DNA of 64,000 nucleotides, from NCBI GenBank assembly GCA_964016885.1, contig OZ024751.1, positions 23,188,001 through 23,252,000 on the forward strand. Reading direction: 5' to 3'. This document shows positions 34,601-37,600 of this stretch, piece by piece. Origin of the DNA: Eledone cirrhosa. Its lineage: Eukaryota. Both the position numbers and the translations under genes were made by a program. The stretch's first letter is position 1. Every line of letters begins with the position of its first letter. The notes beneath the pieces were generated by a model, which did not search any database, had not been told where the DNA came from, and worked only from the letters and a program-made list of their open reading frames with translations.

Positions 34601-37600
34601 GTTGATGTTAATGCTGCTAAGAATGATGTTAATGATGATGATGCTGATGATGATGAAGGAAACACCTTTTAGAAAAAATATTCTAAGTAACAGCGAACTA
34701 AACGTATTTTAACATGATGAATCACAATGTAATGGAAACTAGGATTCTATTAAATAGAATAAAAACAACAACCCAAAACGAAGAAATAAAATTATTCTGC
34801 AATTTGGTCGGTCGTATTTTGATTGTTTTAATATTTTAAGTCAATGGAAAAAATATCTCCTTTAAAAGACTATTTTCAAGCGAAAAGAAATTTGAGGAAA
34901 ATAACTACACCAGAAATATTAAATTTATAAAATGTCTTTACACTTTCAGAACATTTTCTCTTCCATATTATAAGACAAAAAGTTGGTCAAATTAATAAAA
35001 CTGTAGAACAAGATGGTATTAGCCGTGAATTGGCGATAAGTTCATATATATATATATATATATATATATATATATATATATATATAGTATTAATATATAA
35101 GGGAACAAAGAATTAGTATTGCATCATATACATATTTATTACATATTACATGTGTTTCACTGTCGATCAGCTCGAGGAACGGTCTATTAATGATCGAACC
35201 TGACTCTGGAGTCGGAAGCTCCGAAGACGTGTTTTAATATGCAGGCTCACATCTCACTGTCGAGTTGATCGACAGTGAAACATATGTAATGTGTAATATG
35301 TAATAAATATGATACGATACTGATTCTTTGTTCCTTATATATTAGTACTATTGATACTCTGCACCCCAAGAGTATCTAGTGCTCACCCGGCATACTGCCA
35401 ACGGACGCAATTAACTTACACCTTAACACATACACATATATCGAAGGCATGTATATATACTCAAAACTGCACACACACACACATATATATATATGTATAT
35501 ATATATATTTATATATATATATATATATATATATATATATATATATATATATATATACAGGGCGTGTAACGCGGACTTACAGACGTCCGCCGAGCTTTTG
35601 ATTCCAGAGTCGGGCTAGATCGATACAGATCGAACCTTGAACTGATCAATAGCGAAACGCGCGTCACCAACCAATAAACATAATGAAGGAGTAACCATTC
35701 ATCCTTGTATTATATATATATATATATATATATATATATATATATGTATATATATATATATATATATATATATATATATATATATATATATATATATATA
35801 TATATATATATATATATATATATATATATATATATATATATATATATATATATATATTTAAATACAAACTTAAAAGAACCAACACGGCTCTCTCAGAACT
35901 CATATGGTCCTTGAAAGACAAAAACATTAAATATACCATCTTTTGGAAGAAGGTTTCTACTTGAACAGCTCTCTATCTAAAATCTGCAATGTCTGCCTAA
36001 ATGAAAAATTTACCATTATCTCTAATCTAGATTCTATAATAAATAGACGAACAGATTTGTTTTCTATCTGCTTGCATAAATTCCATAACACATTTCACAA
36101 AGTATACAGCTAATATTCAATACTCAATTCTTTATCAATTTAGAATCTTTTCTCAAAGGCACATATACATACACCTCTTTTAAAATATACCCATCTTCCT
36201 ACCTTATTTCAAAGGGTATTATACACTCTATAATACTTGTTTACTCATTACCCTTACTCTATTTTTCACCTTGTAAAATCCTTCGTAACATATACATTTG
36301 TTTTGACGCAAGATTATTCATCCTTAATTTATTTTTTTCTCCCCATCATCTAACTCATTCTTAATACATATTAACTCTTTCTTCGCACATATTATCAATT
36401 CCTTCAATATACAAACCTTAACTTCACATTATTTTTCTCAAATCCTTCAATACACAAACCTTAATAATTTTTTTCTCTTCGTTAATTTTCAAATTTCCAT
36501 AATACTTGTAAACACACACACTTTTTTGACGTTAGAATATTCATCCGCAATTCATTATTCTATTCTCTCTATCATCAAACTTTTTAATCTCAATACATAT
36601 TAACTCCCTCTCCTTCTTCGTACATATTTTTCCCTTCGTTAATTTTCAAATTCTTTTAATTTATACATTATCTTCCAACGGTTTTCAACCTCTCTATGTA
36701 AAACAATATATCTTTCTCAGTTATAAAAACTATCTCTCTCTCTCTATCACCCATCTCTCCCTCTCCACCTTCATTCTCATCTCCTCCCCTTTTTTTCATC
36801 CTTTCCACCCCCCTCTCTAAATAAAATATTTTTCCCAATATCACACATCAATCTAAAACTACTTCTCATATGTTGATTTAAAACTGTACTATCCACAAGT
36901 GTTTTTTAGCCTTCATATCATGTCCTCCTGTTTTATCTGATGAAAACACAAATATTATTGCATGATGATGTTTGTTTTTGAAATGCGCATAATAAAATAC
37001 ATGGAACTCCTTTAACCATCTTTTGATCTTATATATATATATATATATATATATATATATATATATATATATATATATATATATATATATATATGTATAT
37101 ATATATATATATACACTCTACACAACCACAATACGTCACCATATGCGCTGTGAGAATAAAGTCAGTGTTATATAAACAGTTTCGATAATAGATAGAAAGA
37201 AAGAATGAATGAAAGAAAGGAAGAGAAAACATACCATTAATCTGTATTCACATTTAGTTTCACAGTCAATTGAAGAAGATTTATTTACTCTTACAGTCCC
37301 TACAATTGGGTGAATAGAAAACTTGGAACTTCCAGGACCTGATAAACTATATCGGATATTCTGATTCTTTCTAGTTTTATCGGCATCATGGGCTTCGATT
37401 TTCTGTTCCTGTTTATATAATAAAAAGTTTTAAAAGTTAATGAGATATGGACTATACAATACAATGATGATAAACACTCTGATTGTGTCGAGTATATATG
37501 TGTGTGTGTAGGAGGTGAGTTTTATTGTAGCACAATAAAGCAATGCAAATATCGGATAAGTAGCATAAGTATAAATAATATAAAATCAAAAGATGGTTAA

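Follow-up and report, generated by a model that had tools for sequence, protein, structure and literature searches.

The window analysed here is a stretch of 64,000 nucleotides of Eledone cirrhosa DNA (contig OZ024751.1, positions 23,188,001 to 23,252,000), which as a whole has a G+C content of 34% and is rich in microsatellites. A sequencing-run search listed 19 runs, and part of the stretch was present in 16 of these, with a best share of 0.53; no RNA run was listed among those containing it, which says nothing about expression. At positions 35858-37029 of the window, on the forward strand and between two (TA)n runs, lie a broken coding remnant, a G-poor spacer of 823 nt and a type I hammerhead motif. 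The features of this region and of the sequences related to it are as follows.

35711-35857, no strand assigned: (TA)n run on the 5′ side, the likely target microsatellite; 73.5 copies, 98% matches
35857-35961, forward strand: endonuclease (EN) remnant piece 1 (F...T.LS..IW.LK...I.W); profile positions 81-117, 18.6 bits, iE 3.4e-7
35962-35976, forward strand: broken junction with a premature stop and a frameshift; the possible joins along it score alike
35976-36113, forward strand: EN remnant piece 2 (CxxC..EK, N, R, CxH, TAA); profile positions 121-165, 21.7 bits, iE 3.8e-8
36114-36928, forward strand: long G-poor spacer, likely a 3′-UTR; GC skew −0.72
36929-36999, forward strand: type I hammerhead motif (copy 1); 17.3 bits, E 0.043 with a model made from relatives
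37000-37029, forward strand: 3′ terminal segment, common to copy 2 as judged from the comparison of copies 1 and 2
37030-37113, no strand assigned: (TA)n run on the 3′ side; 42 copies
37564-37615, reverse strand: inverted copy of the last 34 nt of the element together with a TA-like flank, located 5′ of copy 2; 37771-37822 and 37615-37564 agree at 94% of 52 positions
37642-37804, forward strand: copy 2, a shorter 3′ end with hammerhead, followed by (TA)n at 37804-37847; 19.9 bits, E 0.0076
38442-38554, forward strand: paralogue of both outer flanks, empty-site-like, joined by (TA)7 only
52251-52414, reverse strand: distant hammerhead relative in the fold-back insert 52287-52547; 16.4 bits, E 0.077, 66% of 175 positions

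The coding motifs start at 35884 (TALSEL), 35985 (CNVCLNEK), 36039 (INRRTD) and 36069 (CLHK), all on the forward strand, which confirms the original prediction of a truncated coding remnant. Piece 1 has an open frame that starts where the TA run ends (35857) and continues to 35961, before a TGA at 35962-35964. The motifs of piece 2 (CNVC, INRRTD and CLHK) lie in a different frame, which ends with a TAA at 36111-36113, indicating that one stop and one frameshift have broken the coding sequence. The six best joins of the two pieces, with break points from 35961 to 35976, scored 63.2-63.5 bits. The open pieces are short (35 and 56 codons), and the remnant corresponds to the last 80 codons of the EN domain. 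Its start lies immediately downstream of R and H in the GIY-YIG domain, so that GIY, YIG, R and H are missing and only E and N of the catalytic set are retained. No RT was found in the six frames of the window, where a full-length RT-EN profile matched nothing besides the remnant. With GIY, YIG, R and H gone and no RT in the window, the copy is dead and cannot encode a working protein. The stop of the remnant lies 42 codons after CxxC; the median of its relatives is 43.

Protein relatives and fold of the endonuclease

The profile used to score the remnant was built from the last 180 residues of 111 relatives and does not contain the window sequence, although the query by which the relatives were found did. 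The result showed that the profile matches pieces 1 and 2 in order, with the scores given above, and that the two pieces joined with an X score 63.5 bits. Nothing else in the six frames of the window exceeded −2 bits, and the best score in 40 dinucleotide-shuffled windows was 6.2 bits. The match of piece 1 is significant with this deep profile only; with a 7-sequence profile, piece 1 scored 0.7 bits below zero.

When piece 2 was compared by phmmer with 1.84 billion protein representatives, two matches were obtained. The better-scoring one, P0002 (E 1.6e-5), was rejected because it is a repeat protein whose score came from seven short stretches. The other, P0003 (E 6e-4, 55% to piece 2), is a 211-aa EN fragment containing a CNCR..CP linker, VIY, YIG, R..H and a CxxC..EK..N.RTD..C.HK tail as in the remnant. 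BLASTP gave no alignment between piece 1 and P0003, a word-indexed search with piece 2 alone yielded none of five candidates, and the ESM Atlas search gave no usable match. The longer relatives of P0003 include four RT-EN proteins (811-859 aa) that contain RWK or RWR, ADKT, YRDDG and a C-terminal EN. A profile search with the relatives identified 340 proteins at E ≤ 0.001, and 113 of the 120 matches listed were new. Among the matches listed, the 30 relatives of at least 660 aa contain YRDD in every case, RW[KR] in 24, DK[TS] in 26 and DKG in none, and the 113 relatives contain CxCx5C in 78, CxxC..E[KR] in 111 and N..R.E/D..CxH in 108; two Cys between the GIY-like and YIG-like strands were seen in none of the 92 relatives that could be parsed. 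The 12 best pairwise matches to the remnant among those listed are 41-49% identical to it. The remnant has D instead of E after N..R, and the same residue occurs in 12 of the 113 relatives among the matches listed. In P0007, P0008, P0010 and P0011, which form a Hydra-type RT-EN subgroup, an insert of 100-170 aa that is rich in Pro, Thr and Asn and carries PRRSQR motifs was observed between the RT thumb and the EN linker.

Investigation of Pfam showed nothing relevant for pieces 1 and 2 or for six relatives, and no GIY-YIG domain was named in the remnant or in the relatives searched; RVT_1 was found below the cut-off in one of four relatives. A PDB sequence search returned T4 EndoII alone (E 0.009). 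The structure of the EN of one relative, P0006, was modelled from 76 sequences (pLDDT 95). The top match of this model was the catalytic domain of I-TevI (Z 8.2, rmsd 2.5, 87 aligned), and T4 EndoII (Z 6.8) and UvrC (Z 5.7) were further GIY-YIG matches; Foldseek placed the same GIY-YIG proteins first, none of them at E ≤ 0.001. The profile scores of the two pieces, the RT-EN architecture of the relatives and the GIY-YIG fold of P0006 bear out the original prediction that the peptides come from the C-terminus of a GIY-YIG endonuclease of a Penelope-like element (PLE).

Clade of the remnant

In the sections cited here of Craig, Yushenova, Rodriguez and Arkhipova (2021; PMC8557442), the Hydra clade is marked by RWK, DKT, CxCx5C, absence of CCHH and a terminal CxxC/CxH, and the coupling of Hydra ORFs, hammerheads and (TA)n targets has already been published there. 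The parts that would contain RT, RWK, DKT and CxCx5C are missing from the copy, and because no RT is present these clade marks were scored in the relatives only. The tail marks CNVC..EK, N, R and CLH are present in the remnant, and the text of Fig. S7 of that work has the same layout. The two Cys positions of CCHH fall upstream of the truncation; the T.LS..IW segment of the remnant has no His, and the canonical PLE rows show one there. Penelope/Poseidon, Neptune and Nematis are PLEs with CCHH, and by eye their rows in Fig. S7 have no CxxC before E and no CxH after N. Membership in these three groups was rejected because the remnant has the CxxC/CxH that is absent, as judged by eye, from their EN tails.

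The locus shares with the Hydra clade the C-terminal EN tail T.LS..IW.LK, the CxxC and CxH that flank E and N, a sense hammerhead near the 3′ end, the (TA)n target, and truncated and inverted copies. It differs from the clade in its 823-nt spacer, in a stem III of the form AU...AU with an AUA triplet (26 of 26 Hydra rows in File S2 start with 'ac'), in a stem II of 15 bp (3-7 bp in the 26 Hydra rows of File S2) and in the D that replaces E after N..R. Hydra elements are generally under 3 kb; a 2.1-kb ORF and the 916-nt segment at the 3′ side would together come to slightly more. The EN remnant almost certainly belongs to the Hydra clade.

The remnant had been tentatively called Naiad-like. According to the cited parts of the same work (PMC8557442), Naiads prefer (TA)n and have remnants in cephalopods, and they have in common with the remnant a GIY-YIG EN and 5′ truncation. 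However, the EN of Naiads is described there as N-terminal with RT behind it, with CCHH kept and no canonical hammerhead, and the Naiad EN sequences of the supplement contain, by eye, neither T.LS..IW.LK nor the CxxC..EK..N..CxH tail. At this locus, a stop and then non-coding sequence come after EN, and the full-length profile gives no RT match in the window. The C-terminal position of EN, which ends in a stop so soon after CxxC, its CxxC..E..N..CxH tail and the presence of a hammerhead refute the earlier call and leave the Naiad assignment with next to no probability.

Within the Hydra clade, the supplement of that work contains a single cephalopod family, Hydra-1_Obim from Octopus bimaculoides (2507 bp, TA target; PMC8557442). 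Its clade and TA target are those of the remnant, but its EN tail is about 30% identical to that of the remnant by eye (about 21 of 68 positions), compared to 41-49% for the best relatives, and its hammerhead and 3′ end are unlike those at 35858-37029. The differences in EN tail, 3′ end and hammerhead indicate that 35858-37029 represents another family. A search of published papers showed none on this family; the main text of a paper on Octopus vulgaris repeats (PMC13282606) contains no mention of Hydra or hammerhead, and the repeat library described in it may hold this family. The sequence at 35858-37029 is a genomic fossil of an ordinary kind: a dead piece of an element whose family is new but whose clade, Hydra, has already been described. 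It adds a family that differs from Hydra-1_Obim, which is useful for repeat annotation.

The hammerhead motif and its relation to the remnant

The hammerhead motif at 36929-36999 is composed of a stem I of 8 bp, the core CUGAUGA at 36937, a stem II of 3+12 bp, GAAA, a palindromic stem III (AUGCGCAU) and an AUA triplet, with predicted cleavage after 36991, 38 nt from the end. The core lies 823 nt past the stop and is followed by (TA)n at 37030-37113, in agreement with the original prediction of a hammerhead about 800 nt downstream and then (TA)n. A hammerhead descriptor found four loci in the window, compared to a mean of 0.045 in 200 shuffles. Copy 2, whose core is at 37711 and whose predicted cleavage site is after 37765, is 89% identical to 36868-37029, TA flank included. 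Copies 1 and 2 differ at six paired positions, and all six differences are pair-keeping Watson-Crick/G-U swaps, for which the probability by chance is estimated at about 1 in 64 from these two sequences. The pair-keeping changes lend modest support to the hammerhead fold. In the distant relative at 52251-52414 (reverse strand), stem I is as in copy 1, stems II and III differ and still pair (by eye), and GAAA is altered to GAAU.

Investigation of Rfam showed no hammerhead family at the gathering score in the whole window or at E ≤ 10 in 35000-38600. The minimum-energy fold of the hammerhead region was no better than those of shuffles (z 0.14 and −0.77); what speaks for the hammerhead is the core motif together with the stems. 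A model made from the hammerheads of relatives gave 17.3 bits (E 0.043) for 36929-36999 and up to 26.9 bits for other hammerheads in the window. Hammerheads of held-out relatives scored 23-56 bits, which is above the score of the motif. The triplet, AUA here, is GUA in 33, GUC in 3 and GUU in 2 of 38 relatives, and C15.2-G16.2, which is kept in 30 of 30 relatives, is U-A at 36929-36999.

PLE hammerheads are described, in the cited parts of Cervera and de la Pena (2014; PMC4209133), as cleaving in dimeric form through a palindromic helix III and as cleaving poorly in vitro, and their role in PLEs is presented as unsettled in the sections cited from PMC8557442. The motif resembles the PLE hammerheads of PMC4209133, as far as they are described in those parts, in being of type I and in having a long helix II and a palindromic helix III, but the conserved G10.1-C11.1 is missing and is A-U in copy 1 and G-U in copy 2. 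Stem III is a perfect 8-nt palindrome, through which two copies can form 8 bp with each other (−10.5 kcal/mol). Because of this palindrome, cleavage at 36991 would be expected mainly from a dimer of two motifs.

Related loci were collected from metagenome contigs (77 loci, 70 of them with an EN C-terminus); several are near-identical, and the loci are therefore not independent. The descriptor detected a hammerhead in 38 of the 70 loci with an EN C-terminus. In the 46 related loci with at least 300 nt after the stop, a sense hammerhead was found in 29 and an antisense one in 2, and the control, an ORF stretch of equal length at the same loci, gave none. A covariance model was made from 30 of the 38 hammerheads (92% of cells paired, 125 double changes). 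When it was applied to 30 of the 32 descriptor-negative loci, which served as the held-out set, a sense match 44-228 nt past the stop was obtained in 14 of the 30 (E ≤ 0.0011, read by hand). Eleven related loci have a TA run past the cut site; the distance between the two is 30-44 nt in eight of these, and 38 nt here. These counts imply that EN tail, hammerhead and TA are the normal layout of the clade. In many related loci, a hammerhead is also located upstream of the ORF, which is the pLTR arrangement; it lies in the first 350 nt of L006, L014, L016, L018, L024, L026, L027, L037, L048 and L063.

At the locus itself, the remnant, the spacer and the hammerhead are on the same strand with no TA break between them. 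Depletion of G is continuous from the third codon positions of the remnant (8 G and 23 C of 80) through the spacer and ends after the 3′ TA run. None of 468 other non-repeat windows of 830 nt is as skewed as the spacer (−0.72), the nearest reaching 0.71, and the UTRs of the relatives range from −0.37 to +0.53. The distance of 823 nt from stop to core is 2.6 times the longest among 38 relatives (44-315 nt). The spacer contains an imperfect tandem duplication (36277-36477 and 36501-36718, with 154 of 192 aligned bases identical), which scored 137 compared to a best of 108 in 200 shuffles. Without the duplication the spacer would still measure about 600 nt, so this internal duplication of about 220 nt accounts for only part of its length. 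The match of copy 2 to copy 1 ends at 36868, and the next 28 nt match 37414-37441; no second copy thus confirms the spacer. Comparison with the 77 related loci showed no nucleotide likeness beyond chance (best E 0.02).

We consider that 35858-37029 is very probably a 5′-truncated, decayed copy of a Hydra-clade PLE in (TA)n, with a 3′ hammerhead that is likely the element's own. The length of the spacer, far beyond that in the 38 relatives, the unlikeness of the hammerhead to theirs and the abrupt end of the homology between copies 1 and 2 at 36868 would also fit a chimera, in which template switching or a nested insertion linked a Hydra EN tail and part of its UTR with the hammerhead 3′ end of another PLE family, so that EN tail and hammerhead are neighbours and not one element. 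The TA runs of the window hold several unrelated hammerhead ends, implying that PLE ends pile up at such sites, which also favours the chimera. However, the spacer contains neither a TA run nor a leftover CUGANGA/GAAA core, the strand bias is continuous and the orientation is the same throughout. Moreover, a copy without this motif would be hammerhead-less, whereas the descriptor finds a hammerhead in more than half of the relatives with an EN C-terminus (38/70) and the model finds one in 14 of 30 others. A chimeric origin is accordingly judged improbable, and ownership of the hammerhead by the element, a conclusion that rests on one locus, is judged likely.

A non-autonomous, retrozyme-like derivative mobilized as a 1.17-kb unit of EN tail, expanded UTR and hammerhead would account for the long, internally duplicated spacer, and animal retrozymes have been argued to derive from PLE pLTRs in the cited part of a preprint (bioRxiv 10.64898/2026.07.22.740005). 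The non-LTR retrozymes described there are, like this locus, PLE-related and equipped with a type I hammerhead, but they consist of at least two tandem units with a hammerhead in each and no coding sequence, whereas a single unit with a coding remnant is present here. No head-to-tail array exists in the window; copies 1 and 2 share only 162 nt, and the TA run and an unrelated stretch of 450 nt lie between them. Furthermore, the 5′ end of the unit lies mid-domain, as random truncation would give, and the other copy is cut elsewhere. A retrozyme-like derivative is therefore very improbable.

The hammerhead differs from those of the clade in its AUA triplet, U15.2-A16.2, 15-bp stem II and lack of G10.1-C11.1. 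It is conceivable, though rather doubtful, that these traits mark an undescribed Hydra sublineage with a self-duplicating 3′-UTR of 0.9 kb and a hammerhead novel for the clade, perhaps from another PLE lineage, which drives hammerhead-only fragments into TA tracts. The original prediction that the remnant ties the hammerhead fragments to an autonomous class holds in that the layout is that of an autonomous PLE, but the link between the hammerhead and a Hydra ORF is seen at one locus only. With the Hydra-clade reading preferred here, one family of TA-embedded hammerhead fragments is tied to a named autonomous clade. If the odd hammerhead is the element's own, the known range of PLE ribozymes widens, and the motif offers a natural test of whether cleavage occurs at all or only as dimers.

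Insertion site, proposed mechanism and other repeats

Comparison within the window showed that the flanks 35426-35468 and 37113-37168 recur at 38442-38554 joined by (TA)7 only, which looks like the state before insertion as judged from this paralogue. In the filled site, the corresponding gap also holds a second insert (35558-35710). The stretches 35187-35412 and 38157-38382 are 98.7% inverted copies and belong to a repeat family that brackets the remnant (35084-35470, 35558-35710 and 38157-38560); the Hydra copy is apparently located in a TA tract within this bracketing repeat. By eye, 35240-35295 and 35650-35680 resemble decayed hammerheads with a palindromic stem III. At the inverted/forward junction of copy 2, a 28-nt repeat was observed (37414-37441 and 37613-37640, 27 positions identical), and its copy at 37613-37640 may have been inserted with nearby DNA as the template.

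In the cited part of work on Poseidon, its RT-EN cuts AT-rich DNA in vitro and reverse transcription is primed inside the element RNA (PMC11167929), and PLE insertions are described in the sections cited from PMC8557442 as mostly 5′-truncated and often accompanied by an inverted truncated partner; the inverted piece at 37564-37615 next to copy 2 fits this pattern. By analogy with known PLEs, an intact master element would have been transcribed, and its RT-EN protein would have nicked AT-rich DNA at the TA tract and copied the RNA into DNA, starting close to the 3′ end. This synthesis would have halted after about 1.17 kb, inside EN, and the copy would then have decayed. The hammerhead would cut the precursor RNA after 36991, mainly as a dimer, as happens with tandem PLE transcripts. 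The same process, when cut off earlier, would yield pieces that contain the hammerhead end alone; 37642-37804, with an inverted 3′ end beside it, would be an example. The spacer would owe at least part of its length to the internal duplication (about 220 nt).

Hammerhead motifs of other sequence families are present at 38045-38099 (reverse strand), 18068-18158 (forward strand) and 63900-63969 (reverse strand); the one at 18068-18158 lies inside an inverted-repeat pair (17548-17770 and 18226-18453). At 21602-21717 and 29264-29385, hammerhead-like motifs of a single family form inverted pairs, back to back, by TA or TC runs. These motifs score highest in the window with the model (19.5-26.9 bits) and have a weak stem II, and a degenerate copy of this family is found near 29720. 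Near-perfect fold-back inserts occur at 2984-3353, 10287-10650, 15333-15424, 18651-18737, 24016-24196, 52287-52547, 61719-62123 and 62302-62432, and most of them adjoin (TA)n; that at 61719-62123 has 198-nt arms that are 100% complementary and 9 nt apart. The fold-back inserts are likely inverted truncated PLE ends. Among other repeats of the window, a 700-nt repeat is present at 8512-9213 and 58281-58979 (94% identity, 50 kb apart), and a 70-nt satellite of 24 copies at 47931-49620 lies within inverted arms of 269 nt (46690-46958 and 49589-49857). A dispersed SINE-like family of 190 nt has many copies, including those at 4664-4846, 39808-39997, 46463-46661, 46969-47160 and 56768-56961.
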